From assembly GCA_050181585.1 (NCBI GenBank), contig JBFXDA010000013.1:21409-85408 (forward strand): DNA of 64,000 nt, in the 5' to 3' direction. This DNA comes from Reyranellaceae bacterium (lineage in GTDB: Bacteria > Pseudomonadota > Alphaproteobacteria > Reyranellales > JAQSWP01). The stretch's first letter is position 1. Each line of letters opens with the position of its first letter. The position numbers and the translations under genes are program-made. Shown here one piece after another: positions 1 to 34,322 of the stretch. The notes below the pieces were generated by a model that was given only the letters and a program-made list of their open reading frames with translations, was not told the DNA's origin and made no database searches.

Positions 1-182
1 GTGCTGGGGCGCGTGCACGTGGCGGGGCTTGGGCTCGACGAGGGTCTGGACCATGGGATCGGTGGGCGGCTCCGCCGTCACCCTAGAGCAAATCAGGGCC
101 TGACGGAATCGCGGGCGATGCCGTCGAAACCCGCCGATCCGCTCGCCATGGCCAAGTCCCGCCGGCGCGCGCACTATGGGGC

Positions 183-30270: not shown

Positions 30271-30286
30271 GTACCAAATATGGTAC
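30271..30286. promoter_or_regulatory. Palindromic operator-like site GTACCA-AATA-TGGTAC upstream of the HTH gene
   Basis: Perfect 6-bp inverted repeat within a putative promoter (TTGCTC at 30261). Confidence 0.6.
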
Positions 30287-30294
30287 ATGAACCA

Positions 30295-30603
30295 ATGACA
30301 AGCAAGCCAAGAAAGCGCAGCAAGCACGCCGGTTCCACTTTCGACAGCCTGCTGGAAGAGGAAGGCATCCTGGGTGAAGTGGAGGCCGTCGCCATCAAGC
30401 GCGTCATCGCCTGGCAGCTCGCCAACACCATGAAGCAGAAGAAAATCACCAAGAAGGCGATGGCGGCGCGCATGCGCACCAGCCGCTCCCAGCTCGACCG
30501 CCTGCTCGACCCGGAGAATTCGGCCGTGAACCTGTCGACCATTGCTCGCGCTGCCAAAGTGATCGGCAAGAGAATCCGCATCGAAATGCTCGATGCCGCC
30601 TGA
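30295..30603 (+). CDS. XRE/HigA-like HTH antitoxin-type regulator with no adjacent toxin
   Basis: KHAGSTFDSLLEEEG..KRVIAWQL..MAARMRTSRSQLDRLLDP..LSTIARAA. Confidence 0.85.
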   Translation: MTSKPRKRSKHAGSTFDSLLEEEGILGEVEAVAIKRVIAWQLANTMKQKKITKKAMAARMRTSRSQLDRLLDPENSAVNLSTIARAAKVIGKRIRIEMLDAA

Positions 30604-30606
30604 GGA

Positions 30607-31761
30607 TTACCGCGCCACCGGACTTGCGACGCTCTCCCCGCCGACCCAGCGGATGAAACGATCGGCGGAAATCCCGCCATCCACCATCGCGGCCAGCCCC
30701 TCGCCGATGGCGCTGGCGAACTTGAAGCCGTGGCCCGAGCAGCAGGACAGCGCCCAGCCGGCCGCCCCCAGCTTGCGGGCGATGAAATGCTCGCGCTTCT
30801 CCACCGTGTAGAAGCAGCTCTTCAGTTCGGCGACACGGAAACGCTCGAAGCCGCGCAGCCGGCCCGCGCATTGCGCCACGATCGGCGCAGCCTCCTCGGC
30901 GTGCGGCTGGCGATCGGAGTCGGGATCGCCCGCCAGCGTGAAGGAATGGTCGCCGATCTTCAGCCCGGTCCAGCCGCCCGGCCGGCCGGGCAGGTCCGGC
31001 GCGCCGACGGGGGGCACCAGGTAGAAGCCGGTGCCGTCGCCGATATCGAGCAGCATGGGATGCGCCGCCCAGGCCGCTTTCTGCGGCGCCGGCGGCTCGA
31101 GATAGACCACCACCTGGCGCGAGGGCACGACCAGCGGCGCCAGCTCCGGCACCAGCCGCGCCGTCCAGGGCCCGGCGCAGGCCAGAACCAGATCGCCGCT
31201 TTCTCCGCCGCCATCGGCCAGGCTCACCGCGGCCCGGTCGGCATCGAGCGAGGCGACGCGGGCGTTTTCCCGAACCTGCACGCCCTTCTCGCGCAGCCAT
31301 TGGGCCAAGGTCATAGTGATGCGATCGGCCAGCAGCGCGCCGCCGGTCTTCAGGTAGAAAGCCTGTTCGACGCCCTGCGGATCGATCAGCGGAAAGCGCC
31401 GCGCCAGCGTCGCCCGGTCCAGCGCCTCGACCTCATGGCCGTCCTGTTCCAGCAGCCGTTGCGAGTGGGCGCACCATTGCGTTCCCGCCTGCCCCAGCGC
31501 CAGCGTTCCGGTTTCGATCTGCAGCTTGACGCCGAGATCGCGCCAGACGCGCGCCCAGGCGGCATAGGCGTCCCCCACCATGCGCATGTAGCCGGGCGTT
31601 TCGCCGTAGGCGTAGCGGATCAGCCTGTGGCGGTCGCCGGAGGAGCCCAGCGGATTGCCCACGGCATTCTGCTCGAACACCGTCACCGCGTGGCCGGCGC
31701 GGCGCAGCGCCCAGGCGGCGCACAGCCCGTAGATTCCCGCGCCGACGATGAGAATTTTCAT
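30607..31761 (-). CDS. FAD-dependent oxidoreductase, sarcosine oxidase/SolA-like
   Basis: ILIVGAGIYG, GSSGDRHRLIRYAYG, CFYT, CSGHGFKFASAIG. Confidence 0.88.
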   Translation of the reverse strand: MKILIVGAGIYGLCAAWALRRAGHAVTVFEQNAVGNPLGSSGDRHRLIRYAYGETPGYMRMVGDAYAAWARVWRDLGVKLQIETGTLALGQAGTQWCAHSQRLLEQDGHEVEALDRATLARRFPLIDPQGVEQAFYLKTGGALLADRITMTLAQWLREKGVQVRENARVASLDADRAAVSLADGGGESGDLVLACAGPWTARLVPELAPLVVPSRQVVVYLEPPAPQKAAWAAHPMLLDIGDGTGFYLVPPVGAPDLPGRPGGWTGLKIGDHSFTLAGDPDSDRQPHAEEAAPIVAQCAGRLRGFERFRVAELKSCFYTVEKREHFIARKLGAAGWALSCCSGHGFKFASAIGEGLAAMVDGGISADRFIRWVGGESVASPVAR

Positions 31762-31809
31762 GCCGGCGATCCTACAGGAATGGCGCGCCCGCGAGCGAGG
31801 CCGACGGCA

Positions 31810-31948
31810 TAGAGCGGATCACGATCGGACGGAAGCGCAGACGCTTCCGTCCGATCGTGTGAATCCGCTCTATTCTTTAAAGTTTGGAGCAAATTCACAT
31901 GTTTTGACGGGATCGCAAGCGATTCCGTCAAAACATGATTTGCTCTAG
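31810..31948 (+). repeat. 139-bp composite double-hairpin element (RIME/Bru-RS-like), left copy
   Basis: tagagcggatcacgatcggacggaagcg...gaatccgctcta, spacer, then gagcaaattcacatgttttgacgg...aaacatgatttgctctag. Confidence 0.9.
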
Positions 31949-32000
31949 GCGACAAAGCCGTGGCGAGGGGGCAGAATGGGACTAGTTCGGGGAGGTTCGC

Positions 32001-32606
32001 ATGAGGCTTTTTCTGTCGGTCATGGCATTCGCCGCCGCGCTGGCGCTGGCCGGGACGGCGCAGGCGCAAGGCGTCGGCCGGCTGACGACCAAGTCCTACC
32101 AGCCGATCGGCAAGCAGAAGCTGCAGGTCGACCTGACCCAGGTCGATGCCGGCGAGCTCTATCGCGAGCTGCGCGACCACCTGAAAGGGGTGCTGGAGCG
32201 GCGCGGCAATCCGGTCGGCAGTTCCGGCGTCATGGGGGTGAAGATCGAGGTCAGCTATCCCCGCCCGGTCCAGAGCTCGCCGCTCGGCCACGATCGCGGC
32301 GCGACCTATGATCGCCAGGAGACCACCGTCCCGGGTCTCAGCAACCCGATCCCGCAGGAACGGACTTTCGCGCCCGAGCGCCGGGCGCCGCAGGTTTCGG
32401 GATCGGCCGGCGACGACGAGCGGCTCAATCCGCTGCGCATCAATCTGACGGTCTATCGCGAGAAGGGCGGCGCGGTGGCATGGACCGCGGAGGCGAGCTG
32501 CGCGGTGCCGTTCACCAGCGCCAAGGACGTCGGCCGCGCCATGATCGACCAGATGGTGGCGCGGCTGGACAATTCGGTGTCGCTGGCGGCGCAGTGCGGC
32601 TATTAG
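32001..32606 (+). CDS. Exported hypothetical protein (signal peptide; C-terminus loosely DUF4136-like)
   Basis: RBS ggagg; MRLFLSVMAFAAALALAGTAQA signal peptide; its TAG stop is the first TAG of the right-hand repeat. Confidence 0.8.
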   Translation: MRLFLSVMAFAAALALAGTAQAQGVGRLTTKSYQPIGKQKLQVDLTQVDAGELYRELRDHLKGVLERRGNPVGSSGVMGVKIEVSYPRPVQSSPLGHDRGATYDRQETTVPGLSNPIPQERTFAPERRAPQVSGSAGDDERLNPLRINLTVYREKGGAVAWTAEASCAVPFTSAKDVGRAMIDQMVARLDNSVSLAAQCGY

Positions 32607-32742
32607 AGCAAATCATGTTTTGACGGAATCGCTTGCGATCCCGTCAAAACATGTGAATTTGCTCTAATCATTAATAGATAGAGCGGATTCACACGATCAG
32701 ACGGAAGCGCGGGCGCTTCCGTCTGATCGTGATCCGCTCTAG
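32604..32742 (-). repeat. 139-bp composite double-hairpin element, right copy, inverted relative to 31810-31948
   Basis: Near-identical reverse complement of the left copy; differences mostly in loops and spacer. Confidence 0.9.
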
Positions 32743-32754
32743 AACAAAGCGCCA

Positions 32755-33717
32755 TCAGCCCTGCGCCGCCACCAGCTCGGCGGCGGCCAGATCCTCCAGC
32801 GCCGTGCCGACCGACTTGAACAGGGTGATCTCGCCCGCACCCTGACGGCCGCGCTTCTCGCCGCGGCACAGCTCGAACAGATCGGCGACGATCCCCTCCG
32901 GCGGCAACGCGCCGCTGGCCAGCGGCTGCACGATGTCGCCCGCCTCCTTGCCCGCGCCCTGGCGCGTGTCGACGAAGACGCGGGCGCGGCGCACCGCCTC
33001 GTCGTCGGCCTCGCGCATGGCCGGCGTGAAGCCGCCCACCAGGTCCAGATGCTGGCCCTTCTTCAGCCACGCGCCCTCGACCAGCGGCGCCTGCGCCAGC
33101 GTGGCGCAGGAGATGATGTCGGCGGCGTCGATGGTGGTCTCGATATCGCGGGCGACATGGGCGGAAATCTTCAGGCCCGCCAGGTCGCCGCCGTTGAAAC
33201 GCTCGGCCAGCGCCAGGGCCTTCGCCGGGCTGCGGCCCCAGACCGCCAGTTCGCGGATCGGCCGCACGGCGGCATGGGCGCGCACCAGATGCGGCGCCAG
33301 CGCGCCGGTGCCGACCATCAGCAGGCGGAAACTGTCGGGCCGCGACAGGAAGCGGGAGGCCAGCGCCGAAGCCGCCGCCGTGCGCCGGCGCGTCAGCGCG
33401 GTGCCGTCGATCAGCGCCAGAGGCGCGCCGGTCTGCGCCGAGAGCAGCAGATACTGGCCGATCACCGCCGGCAGGTTGCGCTCGTCGTTTTCGGGGGCGC
33501 CATTGTCGGGAAAGACGGTGACGATCTTGATGCCCAGATGCCGCCGGTTGCGCCAGGCCGGCATCAGCAGCAGCGTGGCGGGCGCGCCGCCGGTGTCGAT
33601 GGTGTGGTGGTGCCGCAGCGGCACCTCGCAGCCTTCGGCGAACAGCGCGGCGATGGCGTCGATCAGCTTGCGATCGTCGAGCAGGCGCTCGACGGCGGCC
33701 GCGTCGAACTGGCGCAT
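32755..33717 (-). CDS. Ornithine cyclodeaminase/mu-crystallin family protein
   Basis: LLLMPAW, GIKIVTVFPDN, LTRRRTAAASALA, VGTGALA, FKSVGTALEDLAAA. Confidence 0.92.
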   Translation of the reverse strand: MRQFDAAAVERLLDDRKLIDAIAALFAEGCEVPLRHHHTIDTGGAPATLLLMPAWRNRRHLGIKIVTVFPDNGAPENDERNLPAVIGQYLLLSAQTGAPLALIDGTALTRRRTAAASALASRFLSRPDSFRLLMVGTGALAPHLVRAHAAVRPIRELAVWGRSPAKALALAERFNGGDLAGLKISAHVARDIETTIDAADIISCATLAQAPLVEGAWLKKGQHLDLVGGFTPAMREADDEAVRRARVFVDTRQGAGKEAGDIVQPLASGALPPEGIVADLFELCRGEKRGRQGAGEITLFKSVGTALEDLAAAELVAAQG

Positions 33718-34090: not shown

Positions 34091-34322
34091 GCCGAACGCC
34101 CATTCTGTTGCCGCGCCGGCGCAACCAGGCGCGGCCTGCACACCGGATGTCGAAGATTAGCCGCCGTGCCGCACCGCGCACAGGCGCAAATTGGCAGAGG
34201 AGCCAATCATCTTCATTGCGGCCGCGCCAACGCCGCCGAAACAAATAAAGGCGTGAATTTGCTCCATTTTCGAAGACTAGCGCGGATTTGCGCGGCCGGG
34301 CTCGGCCCGGTCGCGCGCCACT

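Follow-up and report, generated by a model that had tools for sequence, protein, structure and literature searches.

Two inverted double-hairpin repeats around a short gene of a Reyranellaceae bacterium as probable independent insertions of an IS630-derived MITE family

In the window analysed here, a stretch of 64,000 nucleotides of contig JBFXDA010000013.1 from a Reyranellaceae bacterium, an open reading frame (ORF) for a 201-aa secreted protein (32001 to 32606, forward strand) is enclosed by two inverted repeats, whose nature and origin are the subject of this report. To the left of these lies the gene of an FAD-dependent amino-acid/sarcosine-type oxidase of the DAO family (30607 to 31761, reverse strand; Pfam PF01266, E = 5e-45, and NCBIfam), and to the right that of a delta1-pyrroline-2-carboxylate/delta1-piperideine-2-carboxylate reductase of the ornithine cyclodeaminase/mu-crystallin family, hereafter OCD (32755 to 33717, reverse strand; Pfam PF02423; NCBIfam NF004793, 412.9 bits against a cut-off of 322). 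A repeat search of the window places the inverted arms at 31810 to 31947 and 32604 to 32741; each is 138 nt long, and they are 92% complementary and spaced 656 nt apart. A preliminary description of this DNA had reported the arms as near-identical reverse complements, which holds, with the length corrected from 139 to 138 nt.

Each arm consists of a 63-nt unit A, a 12-nt AT-rich linker and a 63-nt unit B. The left arm begins and ends with TA and comprises unit A at 31810 to 31872, the linker at 31873 to 31884 and unit B at 31885 to 31947, where the two units score 65.6 and 67.7 bits with nhmmer. The right arm, in the opposite orientation, likewise runs from TA to TA, with unit B at 32604 to 32666, the linker at 32667 to 32678 and unit A at 32679 to 32741; the unit facing the gene is unit B on the left and right alike. 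The ends of unit A are TAGAGCGGAT...ATCCGCTCTA and those of unit B are T[A/G]GAGCAAAT...ATTTGCTCTA. The patterns of these ends gave 0 expected matches in 100 shuffles, which excludes a chance origin of the arms. Each unit is a near-perfect inverted repeat whose G+C-rich hairpin arms are 29 nt long, the inner ones bearing a 3-nt insertion (TCA/TGA). Both ends of the whole element read TA-GAGC(R)(R)ATCA..., and its length is 136 bp plus a duplicated TA. It is too short to encode a transposase, and no transposase gene lies inside or adjoining it.

When folded as DNA, the left arm forms two hairpins at −61.2 kcal/mol (z = −14.3), and the right arm folded as RNA forms two long hairpins at −88.3 kcal/mol (z = −12.6), in agreement with the two long hairpins per arm of the preliminary description; the end given there as TAGAGC reads TGGAGC at the start of left unit B. 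Nearly all other metagenome copies have A at this position, which indicates a private mutation. The global alignment of the arms shows 11 differences, of which 3 lie in a loop, 2 are compensatory, about 5 fall in the linker and 1 lies at a unit end, and a perfectly identical stretch of 61 nt lies within unit B. Between the two arms the identity is 92.8%, and either of them is 90.6–91.3% identical to a copy in a different genome (L099). Judged from these identities, the arms resemble two samples taken out of a pool of copies rather than a duplicated or homogenised pair.

The arms are also rich in GANTC, the CcrM-type methylation motif, with sites at 31861 to 31865, 31921 to 31925, 32626 to 32630 and 32686 to 32690. 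The motif, as GAATC or GATTC, lies beside the loop of unit B and in the bulge of unit A, and its frequency of 2 per 138-nt arm, against 1.28 per kb over the window, corresponds to an approximately 11-fold enrichment.

Between the arms, the stem pair GATCGGACGG/CCGTCCGATC is replaced by GATCAGACGG/CCGTCTGATC, and the global alignment confirms that the change is compensatory. Over 26 units, 96.3% of the stem cells are paired and 12 of 26 pairs are altered on both sides, in 76 cells; none of 500 shuffles and no slid register comes close to this. One-sided G-T intermediates are rare, amounting to about 8 cells compared to the 76 two-sided ones. The covariation is therefore family-wide, as the view that it implies selection on structure would have it, but such selection is not its sole reading, because repeats bound by a transposase force covariation as well: if both halves of a unit are binding sites of one transposase, the halves are kept identical. 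The rarity of G-T intermediates fits sequence identity between protein-binding sites better than pairing in RNA or single-stranded DNA. Correction from arm to arm in a cruciform is another possible source of the covariation.

The element belongs to a dispersed family. In the window, nhmmer finds five units; besides the two doublets, a third occurrence at 84 to 146 (forward strand, 46.7 bits) is a solo and partly decayed unit with the hybrid ends TAGAGCAAAT...GATCCGCTC, suggesting recombination between unit types. The spacer between lapA and ihfB may hold a decayed remnant of a further unit at 34198 to 34266, where the ends GTGAATTTGCTC and GAGCCAAT are kept, the hairpin core is lost and the nhmmer score is not significant.

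Three landfill metagenome runs contain the source genome; two of them, X1 and X2, were measured in detail using Logan contigs (k=31). In these two runs, the word depth over the arms is 640–2077 compared to about 11–20 in the adjoining unique DNA, and the arms reach roughly 40–190 times the depth of single-copy DNA in the source metagenomes. From 8 to 14 contigs with unrelated flanks start or stop exactly at 31810, 31948, 32604 and 32742, the figure for the two boundaries of the left arm being 8–13 per run. Of 33 outer ends, 22 have C as the base next to the terminal TA on its outer side, against a background of 34%, which indicates a C-TA-G target.

The wider distribution was read from a genome-collection scan with the conserved 24-nt hairpin core as the pattern; about 80% of the loci it listed are chance matches in G+C-rich genomes, and it gives neither per-genome copy numbers nor the full taxonomic range. 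Among the matches listed, at least about 20 loci hold complete TA-GAGC...GCTC-TA units, all in metagenome-assembled genomes (MAGs) of alphaproteobacteria, namely a MAG labelled 'Alphaproteobacteria bacterium' (at least 15 loci), one of Reyranellaceae and two others. The 63+12+63 doublet recurs in L017, L024, L030, L084 and L099, and solo and hybrid units occur too. Units of 60 nt that lack the 3-nt bulge were seen at L107 (6300 to 6359), L098 (7891 to 7950) and L109 (4818 to 4877), and L107 also has mixed A/B ends; they have the look of doublets shortened by a deletion running from the conserved core of one unit to that of the other.

The enclosed gene is syntenic, with the same neighbours and in the same orientation, in all nine related loci that were read. 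Seven of the nine (L001, L002, L003, L115, L116, L118 and L119) are free of the repeat at both junctions or are too tightly spaced to hold it. These seven have the order DAO(−)/ORF(+)/OCD(−), with ORF identities of 45–81% and intergenic gaps of 0–110 bp, and at the right-hand site the convergent genes of the relatives abut, with spacers down to 0 bp. From this comparison, the enclosed gene appears to be an ancestral resident of the locus.

The left junction can be compared directly with empty sites. In L116, L117 and L002, whose spacers align best, the site reads GACGGTA-TA-GGCGACAAA with a single TA, and in the window it reads GACGGCA-TA[GAGC..136 bp..GCTC]TA-GGCGACAAA; over a longer flank, the empty GACGGTA-TA-GGCGACAAAG is set against GACGGCA-TA[GAGC...GCTC]TA-GGCGACAAAG. 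The difference between the filled and the empty site indicates that the insertion consisted of 136 bp together with a duplicated TA, the two copies of which lie at 31810 to 31811 and 31946 to 31947. The insertion point is one base upstream of the −35-like box of a promoter-like motif.

At the right junction, the ORF stops at the TAG of 32604 to 32606, which forms the first three bases of the right arm, as the preliminary description had seen. This codon is composed of the duplicated target TA and the first G of the element. The encoded protein ends in ...CGY, the same as in L116 and L118; because TA and the first G of the element rebuild TAG, the right insertion left the protein unchanged. As an observation on the region 32600 to 32771, two contigs in each of the runs X1 and X2 pass from the end of the ORF into the reductase gene with the right arm skipped, at a depth of about 27–30. 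Such contigs could come from co-resident close relatives whose right site is empty.

A further insertion is found in L117, a Logan contig of SRR12908354. There the left site is empty, and a copy of the same family sits at the stop codon of the ORF (TGC GGG TAG-AGCGGATCG...) at 1973 to 2057, where the contig terminates within the repeat. Its orientation is opposite to that in the window, with unit A proximal to the gene. The stop-codon end of the enclosed gene has thus been hit independently in two lineages. The separate insertion in L117 together with its empty left site points to two independent insertions, not to a cassette. The preliminary description had suggested a composite mobile cassette, and had named synteny of the gene without repeats in relatives as the first of two observations that would speak against it; that synteny is what the seven relatives show, and with the single independent insertion in L117, the suggestion is not upheld.

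The source of the family was indicated by the ends of the arms. In a permissive blastn search of plasmids, the first 28 bases of the arm fell on the tip of an annotated IS630-family insertion sequence (IS) of the Mesorhizobium plasmid pMspAR10a, with 89.3% identity over 28 bases, terminal TA included. This IS of Mesorhizobium sp. AR10 is 1049 bp long (L120, 2501 to 3549), is flanked as C-TA...TA-G and has the end TA-GAGCATTTCATGTTTTGACGGAAGCG; the arm of unit B, TA-GAGCAAATCATGTTTTGACGGAATCG, has 23 of 28 element bases in common with this tip without any sliding. In a Stellaceae MAG and in Pelagibius, related ISs that are seated in CTAG match at 20–21 of 28 bases when anchored at the terminus. 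The TA-GAGC end occurs in ISRm2011-2 and its relatives in Roseomonas, Azospirillum and Methylobacterium, and this tip was present in five of seven further alphaproteobacterial IS630-family ends that were read. GANTC occupies about positions 21–27 of IS630-family terminal repeats. The transposases of the ISRm2011-2 group end in ...AGYASVKT, and their stop codon falls within the right terminal repeat; the arm retains the remnant ...TCCGTCAAAACATGA, which is the coding sequence of SVKT and the stop codon. The IS630 family inserts into TA with a 2-bp duplication, and IS630 itself prefers CTAG (PMC2170065). The match of the arms to IS630-family terminal repeats, the TA duplication and the CTAG preference together indicate that the element is an IS630-derived miniature inverted-repeat transposable element (MITE).

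In the ISs of the ISRm2011-2/ISRel6 group (L120; L129 to L131), GANTC (CcrM) was observed in the left terminal repeat, and coding is spread over two frames on either side of an A8 run, suggestive of programmed frameshifting. With the permissive threshold of E<=10, matches to plasmids of Sinorhizobium, Rhizobium and Nitratireductor were also returned, and these were rejected as coding sequence of the H-loop of ABC transporters (HDQTEA). The stem of unit A, CACGATCAGACGGAAGCG, happens to spell the HDQTEA codons, a chance likeness which makes the match to L121 (601 to 646, Sinorhizobium medicae pSMED01) and similar plasmid matches spurious.

Taken as a whole, the results are best read, with a probability of roughly 85%, as two independent insertions of one IS630-derived MITE family. 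The element is of a known kind, and this member of it had not been described before. Each unit would be a pair of IS630-family terminal inverted repeats placed back to back, and two terminal repeats in this arrangement would read as a long hairpin. A DDE transposase of the IS630/Tc1-mariner type, encoded elsewhere in the genome, presumably binds the terminal repeats, excises the element and pastes it into TA, preferably within CTAG, with duplication of the TA. In a genome of about 68% G+C, TA sites would be concentrated in promoters and in TAG and TAA stop codons; such a concentration could account for the landing of the two copies at the edge of a −35-like box and at the stop codon of the gene. 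The inverted arrangement of the two copies would then be a coincidence with a 50:50 chance. As a lesser proposal, the 3-nt insertion in the inner hairpin arms might disable the inner ends and thereby make the doublet move as one unit.

Several points weigh against this interpretation. The target duplication on the right is deduced from the structure of the element alone, as the right spacer of the nearest relatives differs (TAT-TGA-TCA) and provides no exact empty site. On the left, L001, L119 and L115 have no TA at the site, and the duplication is read from three of six relatives. A tblastn search of the 64-kb window and of fetched loci totalling about 0.9 Mb found no IS630-family transposase gene, and no IS with ends identical to those of unit A or B (GAGCAAATCA... 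or GAGCGGATCA...) was found, so that the cognate partner is a presumed one. Mobilisation in trans is likewise presumed.

The 138-nt arms could instead delimit an invertible segment, with recombination between them turning the gene around, whether as part of a programmed switch or in occasional inversions mediated by RecA. The 61-nt identical stretch in unit B is long enough for homologous recombination, and an occasional RecA-mediated inversion across it is physically possible. However, no recombinase is present among the neighbours (DAO, OCD, LapA, IHF, S1, pyrF and an HTH protein), the orientation of the gene is the ancestral one in all relatives, and the arms, at 92.8% identity, have not been homogenised. 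In addition, the segment contains the promoter-like motif itself, and a flip would therefore leave expression unswitched. No joint of a flank to an inverted interior occurs in the three metagenome runs, which weighs little because k=31 contigs break inside the arms. An invertible segment is considered very unlikely on these grounds.

Instead of selfish insertions, the repeats could also be primarily RNA or DNA elements selected for a function, for example as bidirectional terminators, as stabilisers of mRNA or as regulatory sites dependent on CcrM methylation. The enrichment in GANTC agrees with this, comparable CIR repeats have been proposed to relate to CcrM (PMC2229807), and unit B is called terminator-like (2 found compared to 0.8 ± 1.0 expected), on the strand that points toward the gene in the left arm and away from the gene in the right one. 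However, the relatives lack the repeats at both sites, and their right-hand convergent genes even abut; copies of the family are scattered over unrelated loci with differing flanks, no Rfam family scores above chance, and GANTC is already present in the terminal repeats of the parental ISs. A selected function for the repeats is therefore highly improbable, and secondary effects on the promoters or 3' ends of the DAO gene and the ORF are possible.

A third alternative treats the whole 932-bp unit as a MITE-flanked composite transposon, in which the transposase acts on the outermost terminal repeats and the gene is cargo. Pairs of MITEs mobilise intervening genes, as in MITE-flanked integrons and resistance genes, and here the outermost ends (31810... 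and ...32741) are intact, inverted and TA-flanked terminal repeats of unit A, which makes movement as a composite conceivable in principle. There is no trace that it has occurred: every homolog with its context read is in the same DAO-OCD locus and orientation, seven of nine having no MITE at either junction, L117 has a single insertion only, and the arms are merely 92% alike. Moreover, no one duplication spans the unit, since ...GGCA-TA on the left and TA-GAAC on the right each stem from an insertion of their own. The composite is scarcely credible as an account of this locus.

The least credible alternative, that of REP/REPIN-type or IS200/IS605-derived hairpins moved in single-stranded form by a Y1 enzyme (RAYT/TnpA) with the covariation as selection on the DNA hairpin, can draw on the strength of that covariation, on a two-hairpin layout loosely like left-end and right-end hairpins and on the TAGAGC head, which bears a loose likeness to the GTAG(G)AGC heads of Pseudomonas REPs, but it conflicts with the two-fold symmetry of the element and the same terminal sequence at both its ends, with the TA duplication and CTAG preference, with the match of the arms to the terminal repeats of DDE-type IS630-family elements at the very tip of the IS, transposase stop-codon remnant included, and with the rarity of G-T intermediates.

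By mechanism, the closest known class is that of IS630-derived MITEs such as RUP of Streptococcus pneumoniae, for which mobilisation by IS630-Spn1 has been proposed (PMC2229807). RUP-type MITEs and the present family have in common a length below 200 bp, the absence of coding sequence, IS630-like terminal inverted repeats, insertion into TA with its duplication, many dispersed and mainly intergenic copies and a long stem-loop when transcribed. They differ in that RUP-type elements have one pair of short terminal repeats around a core, whereas the present element is a doublet with a linker and four terminal-repeat copies, with the 29-nt G+C-rich hairpin arms, the TCA/TGA insertion of the inner arms and Reyranellaceae-like alphaproteobacterial hosts.

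By architecture, the closest are CIR1–4 of Caulobacter, Brucella and other alphaproteobacteria, a likeness drawn from the published description and not from sequence. As summarised from Chen & Shapiro 2003, CIR elements are about 110 bp long and have two independently folding arms with a linker, TA termini and GANTC near the loop, and their mechanism of mobility and target duplication are stated as unknown (PMC2229807). Features in common are a length of about 110–140 bp, two arms and a linker, 5'-TA-3' termini, GANTC at or near the hairpin loop, an intergenic position and alphaproteobacterial hosts; in contrast to the CIR description, the TA duplication and the match to IS630-family terminal repeats are seen in the present family.

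Bru-RS1 and Bru-RS2 of Brucella are palindromic (PMC10800456), and RIME1 and RIME2 of Rhizobium and Sinorhizobium have a conserved secondary structure in common (PMC2573895). These intergenic repeats of alphaproteobacteria, of about 103–109 bp, were the class to which the preliminary description had likened the arms. The likeness is right in kind, in that the arms belong with the non-autonomous, double-hairpin, TA-ended mobile repeats known from alphaproteobacteria, which CIR fits by description (PMC2229807), but the suggested cassette does not stand. The arm gave no match by blastn at E<=1e-3 in 72,556 plasmids including the Sinorhizobium megaplasmids, and with no rhizobial plasmid or megaplasmid matched at this threshold, membership in Bru-RS or RIME is not established.

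At the gathering threshold, Rfam returned one tRNA only over the whole window. Below this threshold, RF02604 (Brucella sRNA CI153) aligns weakly but over its full length with 31795 to 31976, at 22.5 bits compared to a gathering score of 137. In the Brucella consensus of RF02604 there are likewise two hairpins, a linker rich in AT and a UGA bulge, and CI153 may overlap a Bru-RS-type repeat that is related in architecture. This weak Brucella sRNA match and the other permissive Rfam matches, to generic hairpins of miRNA precursors, were rejected as family assignments.

The ISRm2011-2/ISRel6-like ISs have in common with the MITE the TA-GAGC... termini, a conserved GACGGAA(G/T)C block, GANTC in the terminal repeat, the CTAG target and the TA duplication. 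The transposase gene is lacking in the MITE, which keeps the SVKT-stop remnant. Arm positions 5–7 are AAA or GGA in the MITE and GTT or ATT in the sampled ISs, which indicates that the true parental IS is not among them.

The Correia elements (CREE/NEMIS) of Neisseria are TA-flanked MITEs of 100–155 bp with terminal inverted repeats of about 24–26 bp and hundreds of copies; they often adjoin genes and can affect transcripts (PMC2229807). They differ in being an unrelated sequence family of another host and in forming a single end-to-end hairpin rather than two arms with a linker.

A wider and tentative extension, which we consider possible but clearly less likely than its opposite, is that CIR, and perhaps Bru-RS and RIME, would have the same make-up, with IS630-family terminal repeats set back to back in tandem pairs; ISRm2011-2-like transposases would mobilise them in trans, and their CcrM sites would derive from the IS ends. 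Dam sites in IS10 and IS50 couple transposition to replication and methylation state, and inherited CcrM sites could provide a similar coupling. If true, this extension would settle the unexplained mobility of CIR, the origin of CIR, Bru-RS and RIME and the conservation of their CcrM sites.

For annotation, the locus is to be described as an ordinary conserved gene with two MITE insertions, and the labels cassette, island and phase-variable switch should be avoided. The pair of filled and empty sites and the anchored terminal-repeat match tie this Reyranellaceae-like double-hairpin family to IS630-family transposases. More generally, TA-targeting elements in high-G+C genomes would repeatedly hit the same stop codons and promoter edges, producing seemingly meaningful brackets around short genes.

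The enclosed protein has a signal peptide, two invariant Cys residues and a Pro-rich middle. Besides the protein of the window itself, 27 homologs were collected, which are 42–92% identical to it, and one member of its homolog cluster at 70% identity carries a Reyranellaceae label. The ORF has no match in Pfam or NCBIfam, and a look-up of the exact protein returned nothing on record. Its AlphaFold model, of modest quality, has a mean pLDDT of 60.7; Foldseek against the PDB gave nothing at E<=0.001, with a faint resemblance only to folds of small periplasmic lipoproteins (PelC and CC_3750, for example). One locus alone came up when metagenomes were scanned with the ORF.

The promoter-like motif, GCGACA-17 nt-CAGAAT at 31949 to 31977 on the forward strand, lies directly inside the left insertion point and is conserved in the empty-site relatives L116, L117, L002, L001, L119 and L115. 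It scores 8/12 and was not called by a consensus scan; a promoter function is putative.

Farther to the left, between pyrF and the oxidase gene, a HigA-like HTH_26 ORF was observed at 30280 to 30603 on the forward strand, which is absent from L001 and L002. At the same position, L003 has a pair consisting of a Gp49 (HigB-like) toxin and an HTH protein, of which apparently just the antitoxin-like half is left in the window.

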